Shown in pieces: positions 36,943 to 51,839 of a DNA stretch of 64,000 nucleotides. The notes beneath the pieces are model-generated. The model was not told the DNA's origin and searched no databases. It saw nothing but the letters and a program-made list of their open reading frames with translations. Made by a program: the position numbers and the translations under genes. Within the stretch, counting starts at the first letter, position 1. The number at the start of each line of letters is the position of its first letter. Origin of the DNA: Leptospira biflexa (GTDB taxonomy: Bacteria; Spirochaetota; Leptospiria; Turneriellales; DYLW01); the NCBI GenBank assembly GCA_020720785.1, contig DYOA01000005.1, forward strand, positions 9,809-73,808. The letters are read 5' to 3'.

Positions 36943-37623
36943 TTACAGCCTCTGGATATCTTCTTCGCTGAGGCCGGTGATCTCTGCGATATCTTCCATG
37001 GGATAGCCTTTGGACAGCATCCGCCGGGCGGCGTCGTATGCCTTTTCTTTGATGCCTTGCCGCAGGCCTTCGGTTTTGCCTTTTTGCATTCCTTGTCTGA
37101 TACCCTTTTCCACCCCTTTTTCCGGAGCAATTCTTTCCACCCTGTCAAAAAGAACCTCCGGTTGAATATCTTTTGCTCCATATATGTATAACAATAACTT
37201 TCGGATCAGTTCCAGTCCGGAATTCTCATCCAATAAATCTCTGGAAAGCAGGAAGAGTTCATCCAGCTTCCGGATATCTTCCAAATTCCAGATGTTTTTA
37301 AATGTATAAAGAATTGCCCGGAGCGTCAATGAAAAAATAATACTGTCTATGTTTGTTTGATTCAGGTCAAACAATTGGTAGGAGAAATTCGGGAGATAGC
37401 GTCCCAAAAGCCGCATTTCCTTTTGTGAAATGATTGGCAACGATTCGCGGGATGAATCCATCGGCGGGGACAATGGGCGATGAGCGGATGCAAAGCGGAC
37501 TGGGCGACCTGCCAATCTGACCGGAAAGGTGGTGGAGATGGCCGGCCCCTCGATACGACCATGCCCACCCATCGGCCACCGGCACAGATTCTGTAGAAGT
37601 GGCCATTGATTGGGGCGTCCCAA
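36943..37623 (-). pseudogene. N-terminally truncated Rpn-family (YhgA-like, PD-(D/E)XK) recombination-promoting nuclease/putative transposase
   Basis: From about 37416 downward the sequence is typical of the family middle and C-terminus: RYLPNFSYQLFDLNQ, and a tail EKGIRQGMQKGKTEGLRQGIKEKAYDAARRMLSKGYPMEDIAEITGLSEEDIQRL. The first ~55-70 codons of the ORF are GC-rich non-homologous sequence. No nuclease core is found in any frame. Confidence 0.55.
37441..37620. other. Compositional island of 180 bp at ~62% GC; function unknown (structured RNA or foreign remnant)
   Basis: My hand count is 112 G+C out of 180. It is flanked on the right by an extremely AT-rich ~90 bp. It contains local stems such as GGCCAC..GTGGCC and GGTGG..CCACC, and an 8-nt direct repeat CCATCGGC. 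Confidence 0.3.
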
Positions 37624-37719
37624 CGCAGATTGCTAATTAAAACCATTTTCAATTAGTATTATTTTATAAAATTATACTAATTCAAATTTTATTGACTCCG
37701 CGTACTATATTTTGAGCAT

Positions 37720-37747
37720 GGGCAAACTTTTCAACAAAAGGGTGCCC
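37720..37747 (+). promoter_or_regulatory. Hairpin covering the only SD-like purine run, 3 nt upstream of the molybdoenzyme start codon
   Basis: The sequence is GGGCA-aa-CTTTT-caac-AAAAG-gg-TGCCC, followed by AA and ATG (37750). The 3' arm contains AAAAGG. Confidence 0.3.
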
Positions 37748-37749
37748 AA

Positions 37750-39960
37750 ATGATAAACGAAAAAAATAAAGTAAGCCGCCGGGAGTTTATAAAGATTTCC
37801 GGAGCTACCGTTGCGGCAGCAGCGGCGGCGTCAGCAGGTGCAGGTTATTTATTCAGCGAGATAAAAACAAATAGTGATGGGAAAACAGACAGAAAGATAG
37901 TGAATACATACTGTGATGTCTGCTTCTTCCAGTGTGGTCTGAATGTTACGGTGGAGAACGGCGTAGCGGTTAACATTGAAGGAAATCCCCACCATCCGCT
38001 TTCCCGTGGGAAATTGTGTCCCCGTGGGACCGGCGGATTGGGACAGCTTTATGATAAAGATCGGATAAAAAATCCCCTGAAAAGAACTACGAATCTCTTG
38101 GGGCAACAGACATTCAAGGAAATTTCCTGGGATCAGGCTTTGGATGAAATTGCAGAAAAAATGAAAGAAATTATCGGTAAATACGGACCCCAATCCATGG
38201 GTATGGTTAAGCATGGGAAGGGAGCGGAACCATGGGAGCAGTTATGGCATGCAATTGGATCCAAAACAGAAGGGCATGCATCCTTTGCACAATGCAGGGG
38301 TCCAAGAGACGTGGGCTGGATCATTACCTATGGTTCCAATCCGGGTTCACCGGAAATGGTAGCTTTGGATAAGGCCGAAGTGGTTGCCTTCATTGGCGGG
38401 CACCTTGGCGAAAACATGCATAATATCAATGTGCAGGATTTCGCACTTGGATTGAAAAACGGGGCCCGTAACATTGTTGTGGATCCACGGCACTCCACGA
38501 CTGCGGCAAAAGCCAAATACTGGCTTCCCATTAAACCGGGCACGGATACAGCGTTGCTTCTGGCGTGGATGAATGTACTTATATCGGAAGGTCTTTATGA
38601 CAAGGCCTTTGTTGCCAACCATACTTTGGGATTTGATAAGCTTTCTGCTCATGTGAAGAACATGACTCCGGAATGGGCAGCCGCCTATACCGGCCTGGAT
38701 GCGGAAGCGATCCGTGCCACAGCGAGGGAATTAGGAAATGCAAGAGGAAAATCTCTGGTATGGCCGGGAAGAAAATATGTATGGTATGGAGATGATACAC
38801 AGAGAGCCCGTGCGGTGGCGATACTGAACGCCCTGTTAGGGGCATGGCACAATGAAAATGCCCTTTTCCCCGGCGATAGATTTCCACTTCCCGAACCAAC
38901 CCTGGGGCACCATTCCCACAAGAAAGGGAAGAAAGCATTTGACCAGATGGCAAAATATCCCTTTGCCACCGATGTGCCCGCCCAGGATATCATGGCGTCT
39001 GCCATCCCGGGGAAATACGAAGCCGGAAAAGATGCTACTGTTAAGGGTATGGTGATTTACAGTTCCAATGTGGTCACATCCATCCCCAATGGCCGGGAAT
39101 TATCGGAACAAATGGCAGAGAACCTGGACTTGCTGGTGGTGGTGGAAACCATGCCGGCAGAGATTACCGGATTTGCGGATTACGTCCTTCCGGATACAAC
39201 GTATCTGGAAAGATACGACGTTCTGACCGCACCACCATGGAGAGAGCCTTTCCTGGCTATCCGCCAGCCTGTGGTGAAACCTTTGCATAATTCCAAACCT
39301 TCCTGGTGGATTGCTCTGCAACTGGCCAAGCGGTTGGGATATAAAGAAGAGTTTGGCTATGAGGACTACAAGGAAGTAATTGAAAACCAATTGGCACAGA
39401 TTGGTTCTTCCATTGATGATATTAATAAAAACCACGGAGTTTTGAAAAAGGAATATAAAAAGCCTCCTATGAAACTAAAAACTCCTTCCGGAAAGGTGGA
39501 ACTGTATTCCGAACTGTTGGCCTCCGCCGGATTTGATCCAATGCCGGTTTTTAAACCCCCCGTACCCGGACCGGAAGGATTCCTGAGGTTGTTATTTGGA
39601 AGGGCACCCCAGCATACTTTTACACGAACCACCAACAACACACTTCTCCGAGAGGTTTACAGTGAGAACGATGTGTGGGTGAACCATAAAGTGGCCAAAA
39701 GGTTTGGACTGGAGAATGGCCAATATGTGGTTTTAATGAACCAGGATGGCGTCAAGAGTGACAAAGTTAAAGTCCGGGTGACAGAAAGAATCCATGAGGA
39801 CTGTGTTTATATGGTCCATGGGTTTGGAAGGCGGGACAGAAGATTAACAAAGGCATATAAAAAAGGTGCCAGCGTTGGCGAATTGGTAACCAAATATGAG
39901 ATTGATCCCATTATGGGCGGGACCGGCTCCCAGGTGAATTTTGTGACATTCACACTATAA
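37750..39960 (+). CDS. Periplasmic molybdopterin (bis-MGD) oxidoreductase catalytic subunit, PhsA/PsrA-type (thiosulfate/polysulfide reductase-like)
   Basis: 736 aa. The Tat signal is SRREFIKISGATVAAAAAASAGAG. The N-terminal FeS cluster motif C-x2-C-x3-C-x27-C is CDVCFFQCG...GKLCPRG. Confidence 0.85.
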   Translation: MINEKNKVSRREFIKISGATVAAAAAASAGAGYLFSEIKTNSDGKTDRKIVNTYCDVCFFQCGLNVTVENGVAVNIEGNPHHPLSRGKLCPRGTGGLGQLYDKDRIKNPLKRTTNLLGQQTFKEISWDQALDEIAEKMKEIIGKYGPQSMGMVKHGKGAEPWEQLWHAIGSKTEGHASFAQCRGPRDVGWIITYGSNPGSPEMVALDKAEVVAFIGGHLGENMHNINVQDFALGLKNGARNIVVDPRHSTTAAKAKYWLPIKPGTDTALLLAWMNVLISEGLYDKAFVANHTLGFDKLSAHVKNMTPEWAAAYTGLDAEAIRATARELGNARGKSLVWPGRKYVWYGDDTQRARAVAILNALLGAWHNENALFPGDRFPLPEPTLGHHSHKKGKKAFDQMAKYPFATDVPAQDIMASAIPGKYEAGKDATVKGMVIYSSNVVTSIPNGRELSEQMAENLDLLVVVETMPAEITGFADYVLPDTTYLERYDVLTAPPWREPFLAIRQPVVKPLHNSKPSWWIALQLAKRLGYKEEFGYEDYKEVIENQLAQIGSSIDDINKNHGVLKKEYKKPPMKLKTPSGKVELYSELLASAGFDPMPVFKPPVPGPEGFLRLLFGRAPQHTFTRTTNNTLLREVYSENDVWVNHKVAKRFGLENGQYVVLMNQDGVKSDKVKVRVTERIHEDCVYMVHGFGRRDRRLTKAYKKGASVGELVTKYEIDPIMGGTGSQVNFVTFTL

Positions 39961-39987
39961 AGGGCAAAGGAAAAAAGAGAGGATATT

Positions 39988-40548
39988 ATGGCAAGATATG
40001 CAATGTCAATTGACTTAACCACATGCGTTGCCTGCGACGCCTGTGTGGTCGCCTGTAAAATGGAGAACCATGTTCCCGATGGCTTTGCCAGGGACTGGAC
40101 GGTTCAGGTAATTAAAAACCATTTTCCCAATTTTGTGGCCGATCTGTATTCCAGCAGATGCCAGCACTGCGAAAACGCTCCCTGTGTATCCGCATGCCCC
40201 ACTGAAGCATCGTACATAAAGGACGGAATTGTTCTGGTAAACAAAGATCTTTGCGTGGGCTGTGAACACTGCGTGGCGGCTTGCCCCTATGGAGCACGGT
40301 ATCTGCATCCGGAAGGGTTTGTGGATAAATGTACCTTCTGTGACCATAGACTGGGCACCGGAAAAGATCCTGCTTGTGTGGAAATCTGCCCCACGTATTC
40401 GCTTACCTTTGGGGATCTGGATAATCCGGAAAGCGAAGTGGCCAAGCAGCTCCAGGATCGCAAATACAAGGTACTGAAACCGGAAGAAGAGACCCAGCCC
40501 AAGTATATTCTTCTGGAATCCATAACAGAAAAAGCGTTCACCAAGTGA
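39988..40548 (+). CDS. Four-cluster [4Fe-4S] electron-transfer subunit (PhsB/PsrB/DmsB family)
   Basis: 186 aa with four Cys groups: CVACDACVVAC, CQHCENAPCVSACP, CVGCEHCVAACP and CTFC..CVEICP. Confidence 0.85.
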   Translation: MARYAMSIDLTTCVACDACVVACKMENHVPDGFARDWTVQVIKNHFPNFVADLYSSRCQHCENAPCVSACPTEASYIKDGIVLVNKDLCVGCEHCVAACPYGARYLHPEGFVDKCTFCDHRLGTGKDPACVEICPTYSLTFGDLDNPESEVAKQLQDRKYKVLKPEEETQPKYILLESITEKAFTK

Positions 40549-40555
40549 GGTAATT

Positions 40556-41122
40556 ATGGAAAAGCAAAATGTAAAACAACCATTTTTTCAGAAATTCAGT
40601 GAGAATCCAAAACCTTATATGAACCCGTATACAGCGGGGGTTATTGTGGGCTTTATTCTCTTCTTATCGTTCATACTCATCGGCAAAGGCCTGGGAGCAT
40701 CCGGGGCCATCACCCGGTCCGTGCTCACCTTCATCTCACTGTTTGTGCCGGATCATGCGGCAGCGGCTCCTTATTACCAGAAGTATCTGGGGAGCACCAC
40801 CCATTCCCTTTATGACTGGCTGGTGTTCATGTTCATTGGTTCCGCTGTGGGTGGATTTGTCTCCGGTATGATGAACAGACGGATGAAAGTGGAAATTTTT
40901 AAGGGAGAACAAATCTCCAATAAAAAGCGCCTGTATCTGGCTTTTCTGGGTGGTTTCATTACTTTCATTGGTGCCAGACTCGCGGAGGGTTGTACCAGCG
41001 GTCACGGACTCACCGGCGGTGCCATGCTGGGAGTTGCCGGTTGGATTTTTTTAATGGGGGTTTTTGCCTCCGGTTTTATTACTGCGTTTTTCATCAGAAA
41101 AACCTGGATATCAAAGGAGTAA
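40556..41122 (+). CDS. YeeE/YedE-family sulfur-transport membrane protein, half-size (part 1)
   Basis: 188 aa with 4-5 TM segments. It has the conserved loop LAEGCTSGHGLTGG, typical of the sulfur transport domain. Confidence 0.75.
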   Translation: MEKQNVKQPFFQKFSENPKPYMNPYTAGVIVGFILFLSFILIGKGLGASGAITRSVLTFISLFVPDHAAAAPYYQKYLGSTTHSLYDWLVFMFIGSAVGGFVSGMMNRRMKVEIFKGEQISNKKRLYLAFLGGFITFIGARLAEGCTSGHGLTGGAMLGVAGWIFLMGVFASGFITAFFIRKTWISKE

Positions 41123-41125
41123 ACC

Positions 41126-41731
41126 ATGGATGCACCACTGTTTAAATATGGAGTACTGGGAGATCCCGGACTTGTGTTCTGGGGTCTGATAATTGGATTT
41201 ATTTTTGGCTATTTTCTGGAAAGCGGTGGATTTGGAAATTCCATCAAGATTGCCGGAGTTTTTGTGGGGGAAGACTGGCGGGTGTTCAAAATGATGTTCA
41301 CCATCATCATTACCGCTATGATACTCACATTCGGCTCTTTTTATCTGGGAGTGATTGACATATCCGTGGTTCAGCTTGCCAGCGTGAACCTTTGGCCTCT
41401 GCTTGTGGGAAGTCTCATCTTTGGGGTGGGTATGTCCATTGGTGGTTATTGCCCAGGAACATCCGTTGTTTCTGTGGTCACCCGGAAACTGGACGGATTA
41501 GCTTTCCTTCTGGGCGGGCTGGTTGCCATTTTCTTTTATGCGGAAACATTCCCTCTTTTTGAAGGCTTTACTAAAAGCGGTAATTTGGGGGCCATCATGC
41601 TTCCCGACGTTTTTGGTGGGAGCTATGCCCTCTGGGTTTTTATAATCACTGTGCTGGGTCTGCTTGCACTGGTCTTTATTGATAAGGCAACTGGCAAGCT
41701 CTATGCCTGGGATAAAAAGAAAGGAGAATGA
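41126..41731 (+). CDS. YeeE/YedE-family sulfur-transport membrane protein, half-size (part 2)
   Basis: 201 aa, polytopic, with the loop GMSIGGYCPGTS. It starts 3 nt after part 1. Confidence 0.75.
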   Translation: MDAPLFKYGVLGDPGLVFWGLIIGFIFGYFLESGGFGNSIKIAGVFVGEDWRVFKMMFTIIITAMILTFGSFYLGVIDISVVQLASVNLWPLLVGSLIFGVGMSIGGYCPGTSVVSVVTRKLDGLAFLLGGLVAIFFYAETFPLFEGFTKSGNLGAIMLPDVFGGSYALWVFIITVLGLLALVFIDKATGKLYAWDKKKGE

Positions 41732-41732
41732 A

Positions 41733-42374
41733 ATGAACATTTTAGCAGAATTAAAGAAAGACAAGGTTCAGTTCCTGTTCACTCTTCTGGCTCTGAACGC
41801 TGCCGTAATTTTACTGGTGGTCAGCTTTTTTTCCGGCAACAAAGCCTTTGCCGTGCCGGATTTAAAAATGTATGAAAATGAATTAAACCAGACTGCCGTT
41901 TCCTCCGATGATCTGGCGTCTCGCCTGGAAAGAGGGGAGAGATCCTTTCTTCTCACTCAGGTGATGAGTGAAGAAGATTATGCTTATGCAAAACCCATAA
42001 AAAGCGGTTTTTTCTTGGATGCAGCGGATCTGGCCGATGGAAGATCGTTCAGAAAATCCTTGCCGTTTATTTCGGTGCCACTCATCGTCATGGGAAAGAA
42101 TACCCAGGAAAGCTTGGAGTATGCAAAACTCCTGAAATACTATGGCTACCAGAATGTGCGGTACGTAACCGGTGGTTATGAAGAATTTGTGAAAGATATT
42201 CTGACCCGTCCGGAGGATTTGGCCGTGGGAACACAGGATGAAAAAAAGGCTCATGACCGCAAAATGTCCCGGTATTATTACTTTATGGGCGGAGACCCTA
42301 ATCTGGGTGCAGAAACCAAAGCAGCCCCGGCATCATCCGGTGGCGGTGGTATTGCTGCGGCAGAAGGATGCTAA
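41733..42374 (+). CDS. Membrane-anchored rhodanese-homology protein lacking the active-site Cys, with a Gly/Ala-rich tail ending in Cys
   Basis: I placed the start at the ATG at 41733 (AAAGGAGA upstream); the ORF-track extension to 41664 lies inside the preceding gene. It has an N-terminal TM helix. The rhodanese-like core is SSDDLASRLERGE..., then PLIVMGKNTQESLEYAKLLKYYGYQNVRYVTGGYEEF. The C-terminus is SSGGGGIAAAEGC. Confidence 0.6.
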   Translation: MNILAELKKDKVQFLFTLLALNAAVILLVVSFFSGNKAFAVPDLKMYENELNQTAVSSDDLASRLERGERSFLLTQVMSEEDYAYAKPIKSGFFLDAADLADGRSFRKSLPFISVPLIVMGKNTQESLEYAKLLKYYGYQNVRYVTGGYEEFVKDILTRPEDLAVGTQDEKKAHDRKMSRYYYFMGGDPNLGAETKAAPASSGGGGIAAAEGC

Positions 42375-42384
42375 GGAGAAGTTA

Positions 42385-43374
42385 ATGAAAAAGAATGCAA
42401 AATATATCAAATTTTTTCTGTCTCTGGCCCTTGCGGCCGGCATTGGCGGGGCGGTCATTATCCCCCGGCAAACAATGAATGCTGTATCTGCGGAACAGAC
42501 GGAAAAGGTATACACAGAAGTTCATGGAGAAAGAGACTTACCTTATCTGGTGAATAATATCCATAAACTGGTAAAACCATATAATTACATCATTGGGAAA
42601 ACAAAATACCTGTGGATTGAGATTCTGGGATATCTCTTAACCCTGGGAGTTTTTGCCGGGGTAATGGGACACGCTCTCCTGAGGGTTTTCTTCAATTACA
42701 AAAACCAGAAAGCCCAGCCATACCAGTATGTACACACCGGAGAAGATTTTATTTATGATGGGATCATCCGCACCGGCCACTGGCTGAATGCACTGTTTAT
42801 CATCACGCTAATCATTACAGGTTTTGCGATGCACTATTCAGGCCCCAGCCATGTTCTGGGCTATCTCCATAATATGACAGGAATCAGCCTGACGGTTCTG
42901 TATATTTTCTTTTTAATCCATGCGGTGGTCCGTCTGGATTATAAACAGTATTTCCCTGGCGTAAAGGAAATTCTTTCCGGACAGTTGATTAAGGATTTAA
43001 TAAAAAACGGTATGTTTTACCTGCATGGCATTTTTATGGGCACAAAAAATCCTTTCCACTCATCCCATGAACACAGATTGATGCCCATCCAGAAGGTGTC
43101 CTATATGGCGGCTATGTATATCCAGGTTCCTCTGGTGATTATGACCGGAGTAATTCTGGTGGAGCCCGCTAATCTGCCATTTGTGGTTTCCCTCATTGGA
43201 ATGGAGAACATGAATTTCGTTTTCATTGTCCATCTTCTGGCGGCGTTTACCGTATTCATGTTTTTGATCATTCACTTATATATGATCACAGCCGGGGATA
43301 AAATTGCCCAGCACTTGATGACCATGGTGACAGGATACCATAAAACATACCAGAAAAAAGATGTATCCAAATAA
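42385..43374 (+). CDS. Dihaem cytochrome b membrane subunit (PhsC/FdnI/HydC, Ni_hydr_CYTB-like family)
   Basis: I placed the start at the ATG at 42385 (AAGGAGA upstream). It has the signature IRTGHWLNALFIITLIITGF and further TM histidines (LIHAV, IVHLL..IIHLY). Confidence 0.65.
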   Translation: MKKNAKYIKFFLSLALAAGIGGAVIIPRQTMNAVSAEQTEKVYTEVHGERDLPYLVNNIHKLVKPYNYIIGKTKYLWIEILGYLLTLGVFAGVMGHALLRVFFNYKNQKAQPYQYVHTGEDFIYDGIIRTGHWLNALFIITLIITGFAMHYSGPSHVLGYLHNMTGISLTVLYIFFLIHAVVRLDYKQYFPGVKEILSGQLIKDLIKNGMFYLHGIFMGTKNPFHSSHEHRLMPIQKVSYMAAMYIQVPLVIMTGVILVEPANLPFVVSLIGMENMNFVFIVHLLAAFTVFMFLIIHLYMITAGDKIAQHLMTMVTGYHKTYQKKDVSK

Positions 43375-43388
43375 TTTTTGGTATTGAG

Positions 43389-43868
43389 TTGGATAAAGAA
43401 AAAAAGGAAAACGATCCTCTTTCCAGGAAAGATTTTTTTACTTTGCTTCTCCAATTTTCTTTTTCCCTGGATACATGGCGGGGGGCAGTTCTCCCCGCTT
43501 TTTTTTTGCTCACCGGCATTATCTTTCATCTGTCCAATAAAGCTCACCAGAAAACCGGAACCTCCGGAAAAACCATTGAACTGCCGGAAGATTCCATTCT
43601 GGATGGATTGAATATTTATCCGAAATTTCTGGCATCACGGCAGGATGGAGAGACCATTTTTTTATCCAACCGCTGTACGCATCTGGGGTGTAAAATTCAG
43701 AAAAAAAATAAAGACCATTTTATATGCCATTGCCATGGTTCCCATTTTGATACATGGGGGCGGGTGTCGCAGGGTCCAGCGGATTCCCCGTTACCCCGCC
43801 TGGCATCGGAAAAAATTCATAGAAATGGGCAATCTATTTATAAAATCCACATCCATGAGACATCATGA
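43389..43868 (+). CDS. Rieske [2Fe-2S] protein
   Basis: Box I is CTHLGC, followed by 11 residues and box II CHCHGS. It has an N-terminal TM anchor and an SRKDFF Tat-like segment. Confidence 0.8.
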   Translation: MDKEKKENDPLSRKDFFTLLLQFSFSLDTWRGAVLPAFFLLTGIIFHLSNKAHQKTGTSGKTIELPEDSILDGLNIYPKFLASRQDGETIFLSNRCTHLGCKIQKKNKDHFICHCHGSHFDTWGRVSQGPADSPLPRLASEKIHRNGQSIYKIHIHETS

Positions 43869-44731
43869 AATCGGTTTTTTCCAAGAAATGGAGCGTTTTC
43901 CGCTTTGGGGATTTTTCTTACGCATTTTTCTGGATTGCAGTCCTGTCCGGGGCAATCTTGGCTGTTTTTTACCAGCCACAGACGCCGGAGCTCTCCATTC
44001 AGGAAAATCTGATACAGAATCCTTATTTTTCCCTTTTCCGGGATATGCATTATTTCTCCGCAAATTTTTTTATCATAACCCTGCTCCTGCATTTCTGGGA
44101 TTATTTCCCGTTTATCCAGAAGGATGCCATAAAACCCGGTCGATGGATGACGATGCTTTTTTCTTTATTTCTCTCCTTCTATCTGATGATCTCCGGCTTT
44201 ATTCTGAAGGGGGATCTGGATTCTCTTCTGGCTCTGGATGTATTCCGCGGGCTGATGACCAGACTACCGGTTGCGGGGAAAGACTTATCGGCTTTTTTTA
44301 CGGGGAGCGGTTCCAGCCTTATGGTGGTTTATCTCCAGCACGCTGGAATAGCCACCATTCTTACTCTGGCGATCATCTATGAACACTCCCGGAAGAGATG
44401 GCCTGCCGGGGAAGTATTCATTTATAGTTTTATAGTTACCGGGGTGGCATCGCAGATTTGGAATGCTCCGATAAAAATGCCCTACGATGTTGTGGTAAAA
44501 GGACCCTGGTATTTCGTTGCCTTCCAGGAGGCACTGCACCACATTCCGCAACCCGAATATTTTTTATCTTTGCTGGCGGTTTTGTTTATTATCCTGTATC
44601 TTTACGATTATACCAGGGATAAAACCAGAAAAATTGCGATTGGTTTTTTTCTGTTCTGGTTTATTCTTTATCTGGTGGCGACGGTGATTGGTTTATATTT
44701 CCGGGGGGAGAACTGGAGCTGGGTATTATGA
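43865..44731 (+). CDS. Cytochrome b of a Rieske/cyt b (bc/b6f-type) complex, compact ~8-TM form
   Basis: The haem ligand pairs are H-x13-H (HYFSANFFIITLLLH) and H-x14-H (HAGIATILTLAIIYEH). The Qo-motif position reads GPWYF. It overlaps the Rieske gene by 4 nt. Confidence 0.75.
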   Translation: MKSVFSKKWSVFRFGDFSYAFFWIAVLSGAILAVFYQPQTPELSIQENLIQNPYFSLFRDMHYFSANFFIITLLLHFWDYFPFIQKDAIKPGRWMTMLFSLFLSFYLMISGFILKGDLDSLLALDVFRGLMTRLPVAGKDLSAFFTGSGSSLMVVYLQHAGIATILTLAIIYEHSRKRWPAGEVFIYSFIVTGVASQIWNAPIKMPYDVVVKGPWYFVAFQEALHHIPQPEYFLSLLAVLFIILYLYDYTRDKTRKIAIGFFLFWFILYLVATVIGLYFRGENWSWVL

Positions 44732-46758
44732 ACTGGTGGAAAATAAATATCTCCGGATTAGTTTTTTCTGTTCTGGTGACCGTGTTTCTGGCCGCTCTGG
44801 TGTTTGACACCATCCGGCAGGCAGGTATCATCCGGGAAATTTCTTCTCTTACGGAGAGCGTCCCCGTTATCAATGGCTCCAAAGAAACCTGTCTGTCCTG
44901 CCATTCGGAGATGACCGGCTTCTCTCCGTCCCATGACCCATCGGCCATTGGGTGTTCCTCCTGCCACTTGGGAAACCCCTTCAGTCTGGACAAAGAAGAA
45001 TCCCACAAGGGAATGGTGACTGTCCCTGGCAATCTCCAGAATGCCCATATAACCTGCGGGAAGTGTCATGCAGAAATTGAACATAATATCCACCATTCCA
45101 TGATGGCCACCGGTCGGGGATTGGTGACAGTCAACCAGTATGTGTTCATGGAATCAGAGTCCCCGGACGGAAAGGGACAGGTCCGCCGGAAGTATAAAGA
45201 TTCCAAAAAGGATCTGGCCTCCGGGAAGCAATTCCATCTTTCCCGGCTGGATGAAAAAATCCCATCCGAAAAACACCTCCGCCAGCTCTGTGCCACCTGC
45301 CATCTGAACTATGAAAAAATGGAGCCGGGTCCGGTGGAACAGACGTCACGGGGAGGAGGATGCAATGCCTGTCATATCCGTTATTCCCCGGCAGCACGGG
45401 AGCAGTGGGAAATTTACCAGAATGATAAAACGGAGCTGCCCCAAGTCCATCCGGAGCTGACACAAAACGTGCCCAATGAGCACTGCTTTGGATGCCATTC
45501 CCGCTCCGGACGGATTTCCACCAATTTTGAAGGCTGGCATGAAACCATGGAAAAAACTCTGCCGGATTTGTCCGCCCGGTACCGCAAGCTTCAGGATGGC
45601 CGGATTTTCCGGAAGATGCCGGCGGACATCCACCATGATCTGGGTTTTACCTGTATTGACTGTCACTCCTCCGGAGAGACCATGGGAAACGGAAAAGCAT
45701 ACTGGCATAAGGAAGAACAGCTGGAAGTGGGCTGTGGTGACTGTCACCGGGATGATTGGGAAAACGCATCTTGGATTCCAGCGGGGGATCTTCCGGAGAC
45801 TGACCGTAGAGTGGTGGAGCTACGGGGATTATACCAGAAGGATAGAAAATTCCTGCTCACAGGGAAGAGAAAAGTGCCTCTGACCAATGTGTATCAAGAT
45901 AACGGACGGGTGATTCTGGCCGGGAAGCTGAGCGGGAAAACCTTTGCCCTGCGGGAGAATTCCCGTGCCTGCGTCCACGCCCGGAAAAACCATGAAAATC
46001 TTCGCTGTGAGAGCTGCCATAATTCTTGGGCACCGCAGTGTATTTCCTGCCATACCGGATATTCCAGGGAATCAGCGGCGTATGATCATTTGAAAAGGGG
46101 ACCGGTAAATGGCCGATGGGTGGAGAAAGCCGCACCGGGAAGTTATCTGGCAAAGGCCCCGGTACTGGGGGTTCTGGAAACCTGGAATGGGAAGAAAGAA
46201 ATTTCCACTTTTTCTCCGGGAATGGTGCTCACAATTTCCATACCGGAGGAGATGGAGCATTTTACCACAGGCATACGCAAAGAGAAATATTATCACCCGG
46301 CCAGCGGAAAGTATGAAATTTTCCAGCGGCTCCACGCCCAGGGTTTTTCCCATACCATCCGGAAGGAAACCCGGAGTTGCCAGAGTTGCCATCAATCCTC
46401 CCATGCCCTGGGTTGGGGGGAGGGGGTCATCCAATTCCAAAGTTCTTTGCCGGCAGAAGGGGAATCTCTGGAGGATTTTATCCGCCGGGGTCTTCATTTT
46501 ACCCCGCAATATGAAAAACATCCGGTGGATGGTCTGCCGCAGGATGCCTGGATAGCACCGTGGGAGGATCCCAGGGGGAAAAGAAGCCATTCCACCCGTT
46601 CCAATTTGCGGCCATTTACCCCGGAGGAACAATGGAAAATTCTGGTGCCAGGCACCTGCATGACCTGTCATGATCCCATACGCCAGAAACATCTTTATGA
46701 CAATTTTCCGCAATCCGTTCAGTATTTTCAGAAATGCCGGAAGCTAAAAAAACCTTGA
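44728..46758 (+). CDS. Membrane-anchored multihaem cytochrome c (12 CxxCH motifs)
   Basis: 676 aa with an N-terminal TM helix. The CxxCH motifs are CLSCH, CSSCH, CGKCH, CATCH, CNACH, CFGCH, CIDCH, CGDCH, CESCH, CISCH, CQSCH and CMTCH. Confidence 0.9.
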   Translation: MNWWKINISGLVFSVLVTVFLAALVFDTIRQAGIIREISSLTESVPVINGSKETCLSCHSEMTGFSPSHDPSAIGCSSCHLGNPFSLDKEESHKGMVTVPGNLQNAHITCGKCHAEIEHNIHHSMMATGRGLVTVNQYVFMESESPDGKGQVRRKYKDSKKDLASGKQFHLSRLDEKIPSEKHLRQLCATCHLNYEKMEPGPVEQTSRGGGCNACHIRYSPAAREQWEIYQNDKTELPQVHPELTQNVPNEHCFGCHSRSGRISTNFEGWHETMEKTLPDLSARYRKLQDGRIFRKMPADIHHDLGFTCIDCHSSGETMGNGKAYWHKEEQLEVGCGDCHRDDWENASWIPAGDLPETDRRVVELRGLYQKDRKFLLTGKRKVPLTNVYQDNGRVILAGKLSGKTFALRENSRACVHARKNHENLRCESCHNSWAPQCISCHTGYSRESAAYDHLKRGPVNGRWVEKAAPGSYLAKAPVLGVLETWNGKKEISTFSPGMVLTISIPEEMEHFTTGIRKEKYYHPASGKYEIFQRLHAQGFSHTIRKETRSCQSCHQSSHALGWGEGVIQFQSSLPAEGESLEDFIRRGLHFTPQYEKHPVDGLPQDAWIAPWEDPRGKRSHSTRSNLRPFTPEEQWKILVPGTCMTCHDPIRQKHLYDNFPQSVQYFQKCRKLKKP

Positions 46759-46789
46759 GAGTTTTCCAAACCAGGCCGATGCGTTAAGC

Positions 46790-47713
46790 ATGAAAAGAAT
46801 AATTTTTATCATGATAGCATTATCCATGTTTGTGTATTCCTGTGCCTCCTCTCCGCAGAAGACAGAGAACCCACCGGTGGCGGAAAATCCACAGGCCAGT
46901 GCAAATCCGGATGAGAACTTCTTTCTGGAGAATTCTGGTGATAATCCTGCTACCGACCCATCGGTCAAGGGGGAGGGGACTGCCATGGAAAATTCCGGAT
47001 ACGCAAGCTGGTACGGCAAGGAACTCCAGGGGAAACCAACAGCAAGTGGGGAACTTTTTGATATGAATAAATTTACTGCCGCCCACCGCACCATACCTAT
47101 GAATTCCATTGTTCTGGTGAAAAACAAAGATAATGGAAAGAAACAGCTTGTACGGATCAATGACCGGGGACCGTATGTGGAAGGCCGTATTATAGATGTG
47201 AGCTATGCTGCCGCCAGGGATATGGGATTTGCGGAGAAAGGGGTTGCTCCGGTGGAAATAGAGGTTATCCAGGAAGGCCAGGATGATTTCCTGAGCAAAC
47301 TGGCACCGCCTGCAAGAACGCAGGAATCGGTGGAGGAGACTCCGGTGGAGAATAATGACCAGAAAAAAGAAGATGGCCTGGATCTGGTGGAAGACGACAC
47401 TGCAATGGAAAGCAGTGAGGATGAAGCTGTAACAGAAGCGGATGAGGGCGGATTTACCTTTCCCGATGGCAAAAAACCCAGTGGTTATACCATCCAGACA
47501 GGGGCATTCAAAAAAGAAGTCAATGCAGAGAAATACAGGGAAGAGCTGGAAGACAAGTATGATTTGGATGGATATGTGGGGAAAAAAGGGAAGTTCCATT
47601 ATGTCCTCTTGGGTAATTTTAAAACCAAAGAAAAAGCAAAAGAGTTCTATAAAAAGCTGAGAAAATCCGGAGTGGACGTGGTGTACAAAGGAAAAGTGGA
47701 TTCCGCGAGCTGA
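46790..47713 (+). CDS. rlpA: Septal ring lytic transglycosylase RlpA-family lipoprotein (DPBB plus SPOR domains)
   Basis: The signal and lipobox are SMFVYSC. The DPBB region is ASWYGKELQGKPTASGELFD...RINDRGPYVEGRIIDVS. The SPOR-like C-terminus is YTIQTGAFKKEVNAEKY. Confidence 0.85.
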   Translation: MKRIIFIMIALSMFVYSCASSPQKTENPPVAENPQASANPDENFFLENSGDNPATDPSVKGEGTAMENSGYASWYGKELQGKPTASGELFDMNKFTAAHRTIPMNSIVLVKNKDNGKKQLVRINDRGPYVEGRIIDVSYAAARDMGFAEKGVAPVEIEVIQEGQDDFLSKLAPPARTQESVEETPVENNDQKKEDGLDLVEDDTAMESSEDEAVTEADEGGFTFPDGKKPSGYTIQTGAFKKEVNAEKYREELEDKYDLDGYVGKKGKFHYVLLGNFKTKEKAKEFYKKLRKSGVDVVYKGKVDSAS

Positions 47714-47728
47714 CCCGCCTTCACCGTC

Positions 47729-48802
47729 ATGATAAACAATCCGGACATTAAATTTTCCTACAAAGACGCGGGAGTGGATACCCACAAAGCCGCGTCTTCC
47801 ATTTCTACCTTGAAAAATATTATCAGGAAAACATATTCTGCCCCAGCTAATGGAACGGTGGGCGGGGAGTTTGGGAGTTTTGCCGGGGTTTTCATACCGG
47901 AAGATAATTTTTATCAATCCCGCCATCGTCTGGTGGCAGCCACCGATGGAGTGGGCACCAAGATTGAGCTGGCAAAAGAATATGGATATTATGCAGGCCT
48001 GGGGTATGATCTGGTGGCCATGAGCGTTAACGATCTTCTCTGTAATGGGGCCAGACCGGCTTTTTTTCTGGACTATGTGTCCTGTGGAAAACTGGATAAT
48101 TCCTGGTATATCCCGGTGGTGGAATCCATTGCCAATGCGTGTATTCTTGCCCGTACAGCCCTCATTGGCGGGGAAACCGCTGAACATCCGGGGGTTATGA
48201 AAGAGAATGATCTGGATTTGGCGGGTTTCTGTGTGGGATTTCTGGAGGATAAAAAGGCCCTCCCCCGGAAAGAAAATATAAAAGAGGGAACATTGATTTA
48301 TGGAATTCCTTCGTCCGGCCTCCATTCCAATGGCTTTTCTCTGGTGCGGAAAATTTTTTCCCATATCCGGGAGAATAATTCAGAAGACCGGGCGATTGTG
48401 GAAAACCCGGAATGGGTGATTTCCCATGTCCTGACCCCCACAAGGATTTATACAGAACTGGCAGATGCACTGGATAAAATTGGGGTGGATGCCTTGGTGC
48501 ATATCACCGGGGGCGGATATTATGAGAACATTCCCAGGGTCCTTCCCGATGACGTGGCGGTAACCCTGGATTTTTCCGGAGTTCCGGAGCTGCCGATCTA
48601 TGCGTTGCTGAAAAAATATGTGAATCCACGGGAACTATATTCCACTTTTAATATGGGGATTGGATTGGTGGCGTTTGTGTGTCCGCAGGAGAAAAACTCC
48701 ATACATCGCTATCTTCCGGAGGCAATATCCATCGGCCGGGTGATCCGGAAAGAAGCAGGCAATCCGGAGCCGGTGTTCATCAATGGGATTGATCTTCCCT
48801 GA
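47729..48802 (+). CDS. purM: Phosphoribosylformylglycinamidine cyclo-ligase (AIR synthetase)
   Basis: Motifs are YKDAGVD, LVAATDGVGTK, DLVAMSVNDL and GGETAEHPG. Confidence 0.9.
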   Translation: MINNPDIKFSYKDAGVDTHKAASSISTLKNIIRKTYSAPANGTVGGEFGSFAGVFIPEDNFYQSRHRLVAATDGVGTKIELAKEYGYYAGLGYDLVAMSVNDLLCNGARPAFFLDYVSCGKLDNSWYIPVVESIANACILARTALIGGETAEHPGVMKENDLDLAGFCVGFLEDKKALPRKENIKEGTLIYGIPSSGLHSNGFSLVRKIFSHIRENNSEDRAIVENPEWVISHVLTPTRIYTELADALDKIGVDALVHITGGGYYENIPRVLPDDVAVTLDFSGVPELPIYALLKKYVNPRELYSTFNMGIGLVAFVCPQEKNSIHRYLPEAISIGRVIRKEAGNPEPVFINGIDLP

Positions 48803-49214
48803 CAAGAAAATACACAATTATTTTGCGTTTCTGCATTTTCCCGGCTTCTGGTGTGTCCATTTTCCAAGTATCCGTTAATTCCTGGTCAGAGATGATTACC
48901 CCCGCATGTCCGTTTTTTTTATGGATTTCTTTTTTTACTTTCCGGTAAATGTCGCTGGTTTTGGATGCTGCGGATACCAGAATGGTATATTTGCCGATGA
49001 CCTTGTATGGATATGCCGGGTACTCATCAAAATATATTTCAATTTTATCCACGGCAATAGAATTTTCCGGTTCCGCATTTTTATACTTAATATATTCCGT
49101 GGAAGCACAGTTTCCGGTGAATAATAATATCGCCATAAAGACGGAGAAAGGAAAAAGGTTTGACGTTGAGTAATTTTTCACAGGATAGTCAATGTACAGT
49201 AAACGGATAACCAA
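48780..49214 (-). CDS. Hypothetical (possible lipoprotein)
   Basis: 144 aa. A hydrophobic segment ends in LFTGNC. The start is uncertain (alternative Met at 49136). Confidence 0.35.
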   Translation of the reverse strand: MVIRLLYIDYPVKNYSTSNLFPFSVFMAILLFTGNCASTEYIKYKNAEPENSIAVDKIEIYFDEYPAYPYKVIGKYTILVSAASKTSDIYRKVKKEIHKKNGHAGVIISDQELTDTWKMDTPEAGKMQKRKIIVYFLVREDQSH

Positions 49215-49216
49215 TA

Positions 49217-49552
49217 ATGAGTAAAGAAAAAATCACAACAACCAGTCCACTAAAAATTACAGGTGGACGACCAGCATCGGATGCTTTTTTGAATACTTTT
49301 TTTAAGGTTTTTTCCTTTGAAAATATCCGTGCTTTTGAGGATCTGTTCATTGAGCTGGAGCCCAAACTGAAGAAAATCAACATTGACGGCCCCAAGTTAA
49401 TGGAACAGATCCGGGATGCGTATACCCGTTACCAGAAATTCAAGGATCTGGATACGTTCACACCCATGGATCACAAAGCAGAGAAGTATGTTATTAATTT
49501 TATACGCAAGACAGTAACGGACGTTTATAACGTCGCAAGTAAGGTTAAATAA
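49217..49552 (+). CDS. Hypothetical protein
   Basis: 111 aa with no recognised motif. Its start codon is only 2 nt from the divergent ORF start, so at least one of the two starts is doubtful. Confidence 0.35.
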   Translation: MSKEKITTTSPLKITGGRPASDAFLNTFFKVFSFENIRAFEDLFIELEPKLKKINIDGPKLMEQIRDAYTRYQKFKDLDTFTPMDHKAEKYVINFIRKTVTDVYNVASKVK

Positions 49553-49575
49553 ATTTGCTTATCGGAGGATAATCC

Positions 49576-49953
49576 ATGAAAAAAATCAAAATCATTCTAG
49601 CGTCAGTGGTATTCTTACTCATTTCCGGGGTCTTTATTCTGGCCACGGATTACACCACCAATCTGGAGGTAAAGATTTATCCCAATCCCTACAATCCAGG
49701 GAAACATAAAAAGCTGACGGTGGAATTAAGTAGTACGCCCACCGACGGTTCTTATCAGTATATTATCTTTACTTATAATCTTAAGGAAGTATATCAGCAG
49801 ACTTTTTATGATCCATCCAAGGTCCACTGGTATGGTAATGACAAAAGCGGGAACCGGGTGGCCCCTGGTTTGTATTACATGAAAATTATCGTGGCCGGAG
49901 GGACAGACTCCTCCGGGATTAAATCCAGAATAATGAAAGTACTGGTTCAATAA
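49576..49953 (+). CDS. Small secreted protein consisting of a single FlgD-Ig/T9SS-CTD-like beta-sandwich domain
   Basis: It has a signal peptide, then the pattern IYPNPYNPGK...V.L......I..Y.L.G..V....WYGNDKSGNRVAPGLYYMKI. Confidence 0.5.
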   Translation: MKKIKIILASVVFLLISGVFILATDYTTNLEVKIYPNPYNPGKHKKLTVELSSTPTDGSYQYIIFTYNLKEVYQQTFYDPSKVHWYGNDKSGNRVAPGLYYMKIIVAGGTDSSGIKSRIMKVLVQ

Positions 49954-49965
49954 GGTTTGGGGATT

Positions 49966-51015
49966 ATGAAAAATTATCGTGGTTTACTCTTTCTGGTATT
50001 GTCTGCTGTGTTTGCGGACGCTGTTTTTTCCGCCAACGGAGCCCAATTTTTAAATGAGGGATTTGGTGCCAAGGCAAAAGGCCTTGGGGGGGCTTATGGC
50101 GTCATCGTGAATGATCCATCCTCCCTTTACTGGAATCCCGCCGGTCTGGCAAATATTGACGGTGAGGTAAAACGCTACCGTAAAATTAACATCCAGGATG
50201 AGGCAGAAAAGGCCTTTGAGGATGGAGAATTTGAGGATTTTATTAACGAGGGGGCTGCCCCGCCGGAAAAAAAGGCAGAAAATGCTCAACCAGTGAATAC
50301 AGAAAGAACTTTTGAGATGAACGTCTACGGTTCCTTTGGCGAGCTTTCCCTTGACCGCCAGATTGCCTTTGTGGGTACAGGTTTTACCTTTCTGGGTGGA
50401 TCATTGGGGGCTGGTGCTCTGGGAACCCTAGTGGACGGAATTTCCGGTTATGACGAAGCCGGAGTCTCCACCGGCAGCAAGGATTATTCTGCCTTTGCTG
50501 GATATCTGGGTTATGCCAGGGGCCAGGGTAGCGGCAAATACGGTGTCAGCCTGATGGGATTCGAGGAAAAACTGAGTGGCAATTCTCTGTACGGTGGCGG
50601 GATCAATGCCGGCATCCAGTATGGCATCCTGCCCATCCTGGCGGTGGGAATGGATATACAGAATCTGGTGGGTTTCATGCAGAAAAATGTTTCCCAGAGC
50701 GGAGAGTACCAGAAGCTGGACAGTATTCTTCACTTTAATATGGCATTATCTACCCCGCCCCCCAATTCCAATATTAAGCTCCTATTGGGTTTCACTTCGA
50801 ATATCGACGAGCCGGAAACAGAAGCATTCATGCCCAATATTGGCATAGCTTACGGCATCAATAAATACGCGTACATTATGCTGGGGCTGGATAATGGATA
50901 TCCATCGGGCGGCGTGGGCATTTCCCTCAAGCACTTCAATCTGGCCTATTCCATCAATAGGGATAAGCTGGGGGAGGACTTCCAGCATTATGCCGAATTT
51001 AATTTTATCTTTTAA
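49966..51015 (+). CDS. Outer-membrane beta-barrel protein, PorV/UPF0164-like
   Basis: It has a signal peptide, then GAKAKGLGGAYGVIVNDPSSLYWNPAGLANI, alternating beta-strand patterns and a terminal aromatic residue (F). I placed the start at the ATG at 49966. Confidence 0.5.
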   Translation: MKNYRGLLFLVLSAVFADAVFSANGAQFLNEGFGAKAKGLGGAYGVIVNDPSSLYWNPAGLANIDGEVKRYRKINIQDEAEKAFEDGEFEDFINEGAAPPEKKAENAQPVNTERTFEMNVYGSFGELSLDRQIAFVGTGFTFLGGSLGAGALGTLVDGISGYDEAGVSTGSKDYSAFAGYLGYARGQGSGKYGVSLMGFEEKLSGNSLYGGGINAGIQYGILPILAVGMDIQNLVGFMQKNVSQSGEYQKLDSILHFNMALSTPPPNSNIKLLLGFTSNIDEPETEAFMPNIGIAYGINKYAYIMLGLDNGYPSGGVGISLKHFNLAYSINRDKLGEDFQHYAEFNFIF

Positions 51016-51020
51016 AAGCA

Positions 51021-51839
51021 ATGCAGATATGGGGAATCATTAATTTAACGCCCGATTCCTTTTATGCCCCGTCGCGTTCAAATTTTGCGGAATTGTCTCA
51101 GCGTCTGAAAAATGCCCTGTATTCGGGGGTGGATGTGATGGATCTGGGTGCGGAAAGCAGCCGGCCTTTTTCCCAACCTGTGTCCGAAGAGGAAGAATGG
51201 GATCGTCTGTATCCCGCTCTGATTACGGCCAGAAATCTACTGGGTGCGGATGATTTTGCCCGGCGTATATCCGTGGACAGCTATAAAACAACCACTATTG
51301 AAAAATCCCTGGAAATGGGCGTCCGGATATTCAACCATATAAAGGGAGGCGACAAGGATGTTTTCAAAATGGTGGCAGACCACAATGCGTCCATTGTCAT
51401 CATGCACACATTATCCGCCCCGGCCACCATGCAGACCGATCCCCATTATGAAGATGCGGTAACGGAAATATATTCTTATCTGGAGCATAGGTCGATGGAG
51501 GCGAAGGATGCCGGCATTCCCGGGGAAAATATTATCTGGGATTTTGGGGTGGGGTTTGGCAAAACCATGCAGCATAATCTGTACCTACTGAAAAATATAC
51601 CATTCTTTAAACGAAGCGGATTTAAACTTATGGTTGGGTTATCCAGAAAATCGTTCATGGGAAAACTTTTGGGATTGGATTCCCCGGAAGACCGCTTGGT
51701 TCCCACCGCTATTTTCCATTCTCTGGTGGCTTCCGCTATGGGCGATGAGGATATTCTGCGGGTTCATGATTTCATCGAGGGGATACAGTTAAAGAAAATA
51801 ATGAACGCATGGGAGAGCACCCAATTGGTGGAAGTATGA
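51021..51839 (+). CDS. folP: Dihydropteroate synthase
   Basis: Motifs are GIINLTPDSFY, DLGAESSRP and GLSRKSF. Confidence 0.85.
   Translation: MQIWGIINLTPDSFYAPSRSNFAELSQRLKNALYSGVDVMDLGAESSRPFSQPVSEEEEWDRLYPALITARNLLGADDFARRISVDSYKTTTIEKSLEMGVRIFNHIKGGDKDVFKMVADHNASIVIMHTLSAPATMQTDPHYEDAVTEIYSYLEHRSMEAKDAGIPGENIIWDFGVGFGKTMQHNLYLLKNIPFFKRSGFKLMVGLSRKSFMGKLLGLDSPEDRLVPTAIFHSLVASAMGDEDILRVHDFIEGIQLKKIMNAWESTQLVEV

Follow-up and report, generated by a model that had tools for sequence, protein, structure and literature searches.

A rhodanese-fold protein with a single C-terminal cysteine as a putative sulfur carrier beside a split YeeE/YedE channel in a Leptospira biflexa assembly

The stretch of DNA analysed here (the window) comprises 64,000 nucleotides of a contig assigned to Leptospira biflexa (GenBank assembly GCA_020720785.1, contig DYOA01000005.1, positions 9,809 to 73,808). 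On its forward strand, at 41733..42374, lies a gene for a 213-residue protein composed of an N-terminal anchor, a rhodanese fold that lacks the catalytic cysteine, and a C-terminal tail that ends in cysteine. The gene sits in an operon with genes for the two halves of a split YeeE/YedE channel and for a Psr/Phs-type molybdoenzyme, and an earlier reading of the sequence (the original prediction) had proposed that the tail cysteine, as a persulfide or thiosulfonate carrier, shuttles substrate between channel and enzyme, with the inactive rhodanese domain as a docking scaffold.

The gene starts at an ATG codon at 41733, 1 nucleotide past the stop codon of the preceding gene (the second channel half), and ends with a TAA codon at 42372-42374; an AAAGGAG ribosome-binding site is positioned 5 nucleotides upstream of the ATG. 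That these are the true start and stop, on which the original prediction depended, is supported by the ribosome-binding site, the N-termini of homologues, and the existence in public assemblies of an identical 213-residue protein (P0001). A longer reading frame from an in-frame TTG codon at 41664 was considered and set aside, since it overlaps the preceding gene and is backed neither by the ribosome-binding site nor by the homologue N-termini. Selenocysteine read-through is of no concern because the stop codon is TAA. A tblastn search against plasmids gave zero matches.

In the AlphaFold2 model of the protein, which was built on 19 relatives and has a mean predicted local distance difference test score (pLDDT) of 85.6, a helix (residues 3-33) is followed by an alpha/beta domain (residues 55-157), a second helix (residues 168-185), and a stretch with pLDDT below 50 (residues 195-213). 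The first helix, encoded at 41739..41831, is the predicted transmembrane segment. The alpha/beta domain (41895..42203) is identified as a rhodanese fold by Pfam, the model, Foldseek and profile alignment, and the second helix (42234..42287) carries the family motif R-Y-Y-Y-F-x-G-G-D-P-N-L-G, as judged from the homologue alignment and the model. The Pfam Rhodanese (PF00581) score of the protein itself is marginal, at 21.9 bits over residues 60-154 against a cut-off of 22.2, while those of its relatives are 51-65 bits. When the model was compared with the PDB by Foldseek, the top 15 matches were all rhodanese or rhodanese-like, as were most of the other significant matches; E. coli GlpE (1gmx) aligns over 100 columns with a root-mean-square deviation of 2.9 Å, and Sud (1qxn), which is the polysulfide-sulfur transferase of Wolinella, is also among the matches. 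On the predicted structure, membership of the rhodanese-like domain superfamily is regarded as confirmed despite the marginal Pfam score. An NCBIfam scan of the protein gave nothing but one weak domain-level match to MoeB.

The loop in which a catalytic cysteine would be expected reads LIVMGKNTQES (42081-42113), and in the profile alignment the catalytic Cys65 of GlpE (VMVMC) falls opposite Gly121 (IVMG). The VMGKNTQES loop therefore occupies the active-site position without a cysteine, and the protein lacks the loop cysteine, in a C-X4-5-R/S/T arrangement, of a catalytically active rhodanese. The sole cysteine is instead the final residue, Cys213 (codon 42369-42371), which closes the disordered tail TKAAPASSGGGGIAAAEGC (42315..42371) in the ending AEGC. 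Thus, a rhodanese fold without active-site cysteine and with a lone terminal cysteine, as first proposed, is what the open reading frame (ORF), the profile alignment, and AlphaFold2 with Foldseek agree on, and the proposed flexibility of the tail is matched by the disorder predicted for residues 195-213.

When 1.84 billion representative proteins were searched exhaustively with a profile, 26 relatives were obtained, and the majority end in EGC at only 20-30% identity to the protein, with wholly different linkers that are poly-Glu, Lys-rich or Gly/Ala in composition. One further relative was found in a metagenome-assembled genome (MAG) of SAR324. A word-indexed search with a broad alignment (A2) returned 12 matches only, and a subfamily alignment (A3) was needed; seeded with this Bacteroidota-like branch, a second search returned more than 358 clusters. 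Carriers include Reichenbachiella ulvae and Fulvivirga sp. M361, as well as MAGs of Cyclobacteriaceae, Bacteroidia and Phycisphaeraceae. The names given in the sources are confined to 'rhodanese-like domain-containing protein', 'rhodanese-related sulfurtransferase' and 'hypothetical protein'. There is no family-specific Pfam or NCBIfam model for the Cys-tailed rhodanese, and no description of the family was found in the literature on rhodanese, YeeE/YedE, Psr and C-terminal cysteine that the searchable library holds.

The terminal cysteine is conserved in the family, for which the counts (140 members here, and 60 loci below) were taken from hit lists with neither phylogenetic balancing nor de-replication. 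Cysteine is the last (85) or penultimate (50) residue in 135 of the 140 members, at 20-30% identity, and in those 135 it always follows glycine (EGC in 65, GGC in 70, some with an extra Ser or Gly). There is no cysteine besides the tail cysteine in 96 of the 140, and outside the last three residues the frequency of cysteine across the family is 0.2%. Past the conserved Y-F-x-G motif, the tail comprises 27-68 residues (median 39), and the net charge of its last 14 residues ranges from -9 to +6. The linker is poly-Lys in most members and poly-Glu in some, and Gly/Ala also occurs, such that the Gly/Ala arm of the original prediction does not stand as a feature of the family. Because the cysteine is kept while the linker varies, the conserved feature is a disordered tether of any composition that ends in [E/G]-G-C.

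The catalytic position is occupied by Ser (85), Gly (39), Ala (10), Asn (1) or Cys (5) in the 140 members, and by Ser (50), Gly (3) or Ala (2) in 55 metagenomic members, where cysteine is found in 0 of 55; the loss of the catalytic cysteine, as foreseen, is thus a property of the family. A minority keeps a cysteine at the catalytic position (YCNGT) or one residue earlier (IVVCSEGG) in addition to the tail cysteine, namely P0046, P0069, P0077, P0109 and P0112, and fusion proteins in loci L037, L042, L044, L061 and L073. This minority may represent an ancestral two-cysteine state.

Five of the 140 members have no tail cysteine. Two of these (P0011 and P0013) have apparently truncated or aberrant C-termini, and a third (P0146) has a non-Cys ending. 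The remaining two, P0028 and P0031 (L014:5072-5707), end in ...EEH or ...DEH and share a conserved internal cysteine, Cys120, located in the helix that follows the active-site loop. In locus L014 the second YedE half is split over two ORFs, suggestive of decay or an assembly error. A different arrangement is seen in P0015 (633 residues; L015:8700-10601 and L016:7175-9076) and P0018 (626 residues). Both retain the anchor and the Cys-less first domain, but where the tail would be they have a further three rhodanese domains, with a catalytic cysteine in the final one only. As both proteins are encoded in the same operon type, a genuine sulfurtransferase cysteine can therefore stand in for the tail cysteine.

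In the window, the genes upstream on the same strand encode a PsrA/PhsA-type molybdopterin subunit exported by the twin-arginine translocation (Tat) pathway (37750..39960; 587 bits against Thermus thermophilus PsrA, 2VPW), a PsrB/PhsB-type four-cluster iron-sulfur subunit identified by family models (39988..40548), and the two channel halves (40556..41122 and 41126..41731). Directly downstream is the gene for a PhsC-type dihaem cytochrome b membrane anchor with a likely quinol site (42385..43374; Pfam Ni_hydr_CYTB), which scores 114 bits, below the cut-off, with the NCBIfam model for thiosulfate reductase cytochrome b. The mechanical ORF list gives phsC a length of 378 residues from 42238, overlapping the 3' end of the rhodanese gene; the start is likely to be the ATG at 42385, which follows an AAGGAG site and yields 329 residues that match cytochrome b models. 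This gene content is that of a Psr/Phs-type molybdoenzyme operon, with a Tat-exported MopB subunit that has its ligand cysteine, an iron-sulfur subunit, and a quinol subunit. The PsrA-type subunit keeps equivalents of Cys173, His145 and Arg332 of Thermus PsrA, active-site residues of which Cys173 is the molybdenum ligand. The possibility that the tail cysteine is a molybdenum ligand in trans was considered and rejected, as the subunit keeps a ligand cysteine of its own (SFAQC, aligned to SVSLC173 of 2VPW). The operon contains no Sox genes, and an Rfam scan of the window gave no match, so there is no molybdenum cofactor riboswitch. A sulfidic-cave MAG (a GTDB species representative, labelled Leptospira biflexa SulCav_AS07-7) is colinear with 37449-52390 at ~88% DNA identity.

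The two channel halves, assigned by profile and alignment, are two Sulf_transp proteins with one cysteine each. Half 1 (188 residues) corresponds to full-length YeeE's C-terminal repeat; its sole cysteine, Cys146 (AEGCTSGHG, codon 40991-40993), aligns with Cys293 of StYeeE, the YeeE of Spirochaeta thermophila, on the periplasmic side. Half 2 (201 residues) matches the N-terminal repeat, and its sole cysteine, Cys109 (GGYCPGTS, codon 41450-41452), corresponds to Cys91 of StYeeE. In the StYeeE crystal structure, Cys293 lies in a positively charged periplasmic indentation that forms a thiosulfate site, and both Cys91 and Cys293 are essential for function (PMC7449682). The same correspondence between halves and repeats was described for PmpA and PmpB by Dahl's group (PMC11582611), and a split YedE1E2 pair takes up zero-valent sulfur with both cysteines required (PMC10812762). 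Compared with full-length YeeE, the split channel has its parts permuted, with the C-repeat half encoded first and the N-repeat half second. Half 2 also has a fifth transmembrane helix, the equivalent of the central H7 helix of YeeE, and an equivalent of StYeeE Cys22 is absent. It is not necessary to regard the anchor of the rhodanese as a 'missing' ninth channel helix, since half 2 already has the fifth helix. Mimicry of the channel-loop AEGC by the tail EGC was considered and rejected, because other loci have Gly or Arg in place of that Glu. The window has no TusA/YeeD-like ORF with a CPxP motif, in agreement with the absence of YeeD noted at the outset.

The association of the Cys-tailed rhodanese with the channel was addressed from both sides. 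Starting from the rhodanese, 11 of the 11 distinct contexts with sufficient flanking DNA (the window and ten others) have the gene order redox enzyme, YedE half, YedE half, rhodanese-tail; the contigs of P0007, P0017 and P0034 are cut too close to the gene and were left out. In addition to the window, these contexts include two relatives of 60% identity (L001 and L002), a relative of 28% identity with an ArsR-type regulator (L005), six loci of Bacteroidota type in which an NrfD anchor replaces the cytochrome b (L008, L011, L014, L018, L017 from the cultured R. ulvae, and L019 from a TARA ocean sample), and the multi-rhodanese variant (L015).

For the reciprocal search, half 2 was used as the query against metagenome contigs because circularity was to be avoided. 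It yielded 80 loci at 38-52% identity, 60 of which are complete downstream of half 2. A rhodanese with cysteine among its last three residues is directly downstream of half 2, or fused to it, in 58 of these 60 loci, with tail endings such as KKKKEGC, SGGCG, GGCGG and GGC, and the two exceptions (L076 and L085) are truncated ORFs. The conservation of the terminal cysteine across homologues that the original prediction called for is thus seen here too. In 25 loci the rhodanese-tail and half 2 are fused in one ORF, in the order half 2, transmembrane helix, rhodanese domain, tail. For instance, the 410-residue fusion encoded at L070:6989-8221 has Pfam Sulf_transp at residues 41-218 and Rhodanese at 251-345. 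With translational coupling in the window and 25 natural fusions, the link to the YeeE/YedE halves is stronger than had been proposed.

The redox partner is less constant. It was scored only where at least 4.5 kb of upstream DNA was available, leaving 26 informative loci, of which 17 have PsrA and PsrB upstream. In the other nine there is no molybdoenzyme, and the genes found instead encode a 497-residue multihaem cytochrome c (PF11783) and an 866-residue fusion of a multihaem cytochrome c with a cytochrome b561. This second operon type is represented by L070:2365-8221 and 8 others among L020-L099, with tails ending in SGGCG or GGCGG. The molybdoenzyme is therefore not the obligate partner that it was first taken to be: the invariant core is the YedE pair with the Cys-tailed rhodanese, and the quinone-linked periplasmic redox enzyme is exchangeable.

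These arrangements bear on the possibility that the protein is a Sud-like donor for the oxidoreductase only, whereby the tail cysteine feeds polysulfide or elemental sulfur into the PsrA funnel, the YedE halves have an unrelated task such as moving product or sulfite, and their adjacency reflects co-regulation. Sud is a periplasmic rhodanese that serves Psr and structurally matches the model of the protein, the active-site residues of PsrA are conserved, and rhodanese genes accompany Psr/Srr operons elsewhere (PMC12142623, PMC12481199). However, the 25 natural fusions join the family to a YedE half and to no Psr subunit, nine of the 26 informative loci keep the YedE halves and the rhodanese-tail without a molybdoenzyme, and the tightest translational coupling of the gene is with half 2. 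A donor of this type is consequently quite unlikely.

The same fusions and strict synteny are consistent with the converse arrangement, in which the protein is a periplasmic counterpart of YeeD that serves the channel only, its tail handing over or gating the YedE substrate (in sulfur assimilation, for instance) while the oxidoreductase would use free substrates and make no contact with the arm. On its opposite face, YeeE requires a partner with a single cysteine (PMC11073785), and YedE1E2 imports zero-valent sulfur (PMC10812762). Yet every informative context has a periplasmic quinone-linked redox enzyme in the operon, of two unrelated kinds, and it is difficult to see why such an enzyme is always present if the redox step does not act on the cargo of the module. 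A role confined to the channel is thus unlikely.

A third possibility concerns the terminal cysteine itself, which may not be a carrier but may form a structural or regulatory disulfide (a covalent tether, or a redox gate with a channel cysteine) or ligate a metal or cofactor. A lone cysteine at the end of a chain is also typical of tethers or ligands, and the His-terminal variants P0028 and P0031 exist. Against this stand the variants P0015 and P0018, where a catalytic rhodanese domain takes the place of the tail, the resemblance of the tail motif to that of SoxY, the molybdenum-ligand cysteine that PsrA has of its own, and the NrfD-type operons, which offer no haem for the cysteine to ligate; such a role is very unlikely. 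The terminal cysteine is probably the residue that reacts when sulfur or another chalcogen is transferred within the module.

The location of this residue depends on membrane topology. Each family member has a single hydrophobic segment near the N-terminus, and a second segment is found in 0 of 140. The flank N-terminal to the helix is more positive than the 15 residues past it in 129 of the 140, which points to an N-terminus inside, and a rhodanese domain outside, the cytoplasm. The natural fusions fit this predicted layout. In these proteins the channel half closes with a fifth helix and a Lys-rich C-terminus, which is hence predicted to be cytoplasmic, and one further helix precedes the rhodanese domain, which would thus be placed outside. 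Both lines of evidence accord with the periplasmic domain of the original prediction. The N-terminal segment of the protein appears to be an uncleaved anchor. A cleavable signal peptide, with cleavage between AFA and V, is unlikely given the Pro at -3 in close homologues and the conserved G-N motif after the helix; the protein has no N-terminal cysteine and hence no lipobox. A SAR324-like branch with poly-Glu tails (P0007, P0009, P0012-P0015, P0017, P0018 and P0023) has a conserved pair of cysteines at approximately residues 80 and 92, within the rhodanese domain, and this pair, ~12 residues apart, may form a periplasmic disulfide.

Taken together, gene order, fusions and sequence conservation moderately favour a role for the protein as the membrane-tethered, periplasm-facing sulfur-carrier subunit of a split YeeE/YedE channel of the YedE1E2/PmpAB type, served by a quinone-linked oxidoreductase. 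The N-terminal helix would hold the protein beside both channel halves, with the Cys-less rhodanese domain acting as a docking or binding module, and the disordered tail of 20-70 residues would present its lone thiol, in the [E/G]-G-C ending, as the bearer of sulfane sulfur in persulfide or polysulfide form. The arm would then exchange sulfur with Cys146 of half 1 at the periplasmic mouth of the channel, from where Cys109 of half 2 would receive it for passage into the cytoplasm. That a YeeE-like channel might take over sulfur from the SoxY cysteine has been put forward as conceivable (PMC11582611). The arm would be loaded or unloaded by the neighbouring quinone-linked periplasmic oxidoreductase, here of Psr/Phs type with the PhsC cytochrome b, and in other lineages by multihaem cytochromes c with a cytochrome b. 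This step could be reductive, with the enzyme trimming Cys-bound polysulfide to sulfide, or oxidative, with sulfide coupled to the thiol and electrons passed to quinone, broadly in the way that SoxY is loaded by SoxXA. Of the shuttling to the molybdoenzyme, the persulfide or thiosulfonate chemistry and the scaffold role of the domain that the original prediction put forward, all stay conjectural. For sulfur flow, import after loading is tentatively preferred, because a membrane channel is then easier to explain than with free sulfide as the only product.

Several points weigh against a carrier of this kind. The channel cysteines are ~7 Å apart, which makes direct transfer from cysteine to cysteine questionable (PMC11582611). 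The charge of the tails varies from +6 to -9, so no single electrostatic docking story would hold for all members; a lone thiol in an oxidising periplasm needs protection or re-reduction; and the His ending of P0028 and P0031 looks more like a ligand swap. In addition, the substrate could be selenium or tellurium instead of sulfur. The Psr-like enzyme would then be a selenite reductase of the Srr type, and the tail thiol would bind selenium as R-S-Se and pass it to a YedE-type channel. Sequence does not tell PsrA, PhsA and SrrA apart (PMC12949373), proteins with rhodanese domains are encoded in the srr operon (PMC12481199), and genes of the MerR, ArsR and ArsC families are found nearby in other loci. 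Half 1 weakly matches the selenium YedE/FdhT model with a score far below the cut-off, and the cytochromes downstream of the operon match Ext models of the Geobacter 'selenite/tellurite reduction operon', again far below the cut-offs; indeed, all Ext, YedE and FdhT scores are far under the family cut-offs, which speaks against this alternative. Likewise, the nearest relative of the window is the sulfidic-cave MAG, the tail motif matches that of the sulfur carrier SoxY, and no selenium-utilisation genes were noticed beside the operon in a window that is not exhaustively annotated. Selenium or tellurium handling is the least probable of the alternatives, and highly unlikely.

The favoured reading, that of a tethered sulfur carrier, invites comparison with known systems. 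SoxY has an immunoglobulin-like beta-sandwich fold, is paired with SoxZ, and is soluble, whereas the present family has a rhodanese fold, is membrane-anchored or channel-fused, and has a long low-complexity linker. The partners differ as well, being Psr/Phs or multihaem cytochromes rather than SoxXA, SoxB and SoxCD. What SoxY and the family have in common is a Gly-flanked C-terminal cysteine, which in the family is on an arm predicted to be mobile and outside the cytoplasm. The C-terminal GGCGG of SoxY holds a sulfur-binding cysteine on a swinging arm (PMC6067878, PMC5336275), and the family endings include GGC, GGCS, SGGCG, GGCGG and EGC. The analogy with SoxY that was drawn initially therefore survives at the level of the motif only, with some tails ending in SGGCG or GGCGG, and fails for the fold and the partners.

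Sud of Wolinella succinogenes (1QXN) carries its sulfur on the cysteine of the catalytic loop and is a soluble dimer. The protein resembles Sud in structure and in being, as predicted, a single-domain rhodanese outside the cytoplasm beside a Psr-type enzyme, but it is anchored, has no loop cysteine, and has its thiol on a C-terminal tail, and is thus not a Sud. In DsrC/TusE, a cysteine on a flexible C-terminal arm reaches into the active site of the partner enzyme. Unlike the protein described here, DsrC/TusE is cytoplasmic, has an unrelated fold and two cysteines, and is partnered with DsrAB.

A likeness is also seen to YeeD/TsuB, a small single-Cys protein and the obligate partner of the YeeE-family channel YeeE/TsuA (PMC11073785); YeeD, however, is a cytoplasmic protein whose fold is that of TusA and which has a CPxP motif, whereas the protein has no CPxP and is predicted to lie on the opposite face of the membrane. 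The channel halves in the window are a pair like PmpAB/YedE1E2, with one cysteine each matching C293 and C91 of StYeeE (PMC11582611). The described pairs are of ~130 residues each, in BigR/PDO-type operons, and have no dedicated Cys-tailed rhodanese, in contrast to the 188- and 201-residue halves in the window, the second with its fifth helix. Finally, the rhodanese-domain proteins SrrE/SrrF of Bacillus selenitireducens and ExtH of Geobacter are encoded beside Psr-clade reductases or Ext cytochromes (PMC12481199), but these are larger (38-45 kDa) or are lipoproteins, while the protein has no lipobox and no match to an Ext model. In the searchable literature no description was found of a swinging-arm sulfur carrier that has a Cys-less rhodanese as its body and is integrated with a YeeE/YedE channel, which is the kind of protein proposed here.

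The hand-over of periplasmic sulfane sulfur to channels of the YeeE/YedE family is an acknowledged gap (PMC11582611), for which the family represents a testable candidate: it has one predicted reactive residue, natural channel fusions, and hundreds of sequence clusters that include cultured marine Bacteroidota. Another acknowledged gap is whether the substrate of Psr-type enzymes is free or carrier-bound. If the carrier role is correct, the family would join SoxY and DsrC as a third kind of swinging-arm sulfur carrier, a large number of genes now labelled 'rhodanese-like domain-containing protein' would receive a new assignment, and the annotation of metagenomic psr/phs operons, now read as simple polysulfide or thiosulfate respiration, would need revision. 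A broader proposal can be made only tentatively. In many Bacteroidota, as well as in Leptospiraceae-like spirochaetes and SAR324, a protein-bound cysteine relay with the Cys-tailed rhodanese as its periplasmic port may take zero-valent sulfur across the inner membrane, and Psr-type molybdoenzymes or, in other lineages, multihaem cytochromes may act on tethered persulfide rather than on free polysulfide. Were this so, the module would be a so far undescribed counterpart of SoxY and DsrC chemistry, linked to quinone and integrated in the membrane.

The genes just upstream of the operon differ by lineage, and include an ArsR-type helix-turn-helix gene, MerR, and a gene of the ArsC/Spx family (L005:3218-3544, L008:2668-3126, L011:2515-2961 and L017:4205-4546). 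This variety may hint at control by persulfide or metalloids.

Downstream of phsC in the window, and on the same strand, are genes for a Rieske protein, a cytochrome b and a 676-residue multihaem cytochrome c (43389..46758), a bc-type module that resembles Geobacter ExtO/P/Q/M with scores far below the NCBIfam cut-offs. The trio is also downstream of the operon in L001 and L002 and divergent in L005, and its counterpart in L008 is an upstream fusion of cytochrome b and multihaem cytochrome. It is uncertain whether this module and the operon form one system. Among terminator-like hairpins of the region, the strongest (43477-43499, forward strand), with 9 pairs followed by a T run, is located inside the 5' part of the Rieske ORF, ~100 nucleotides past the phsC stop codon.

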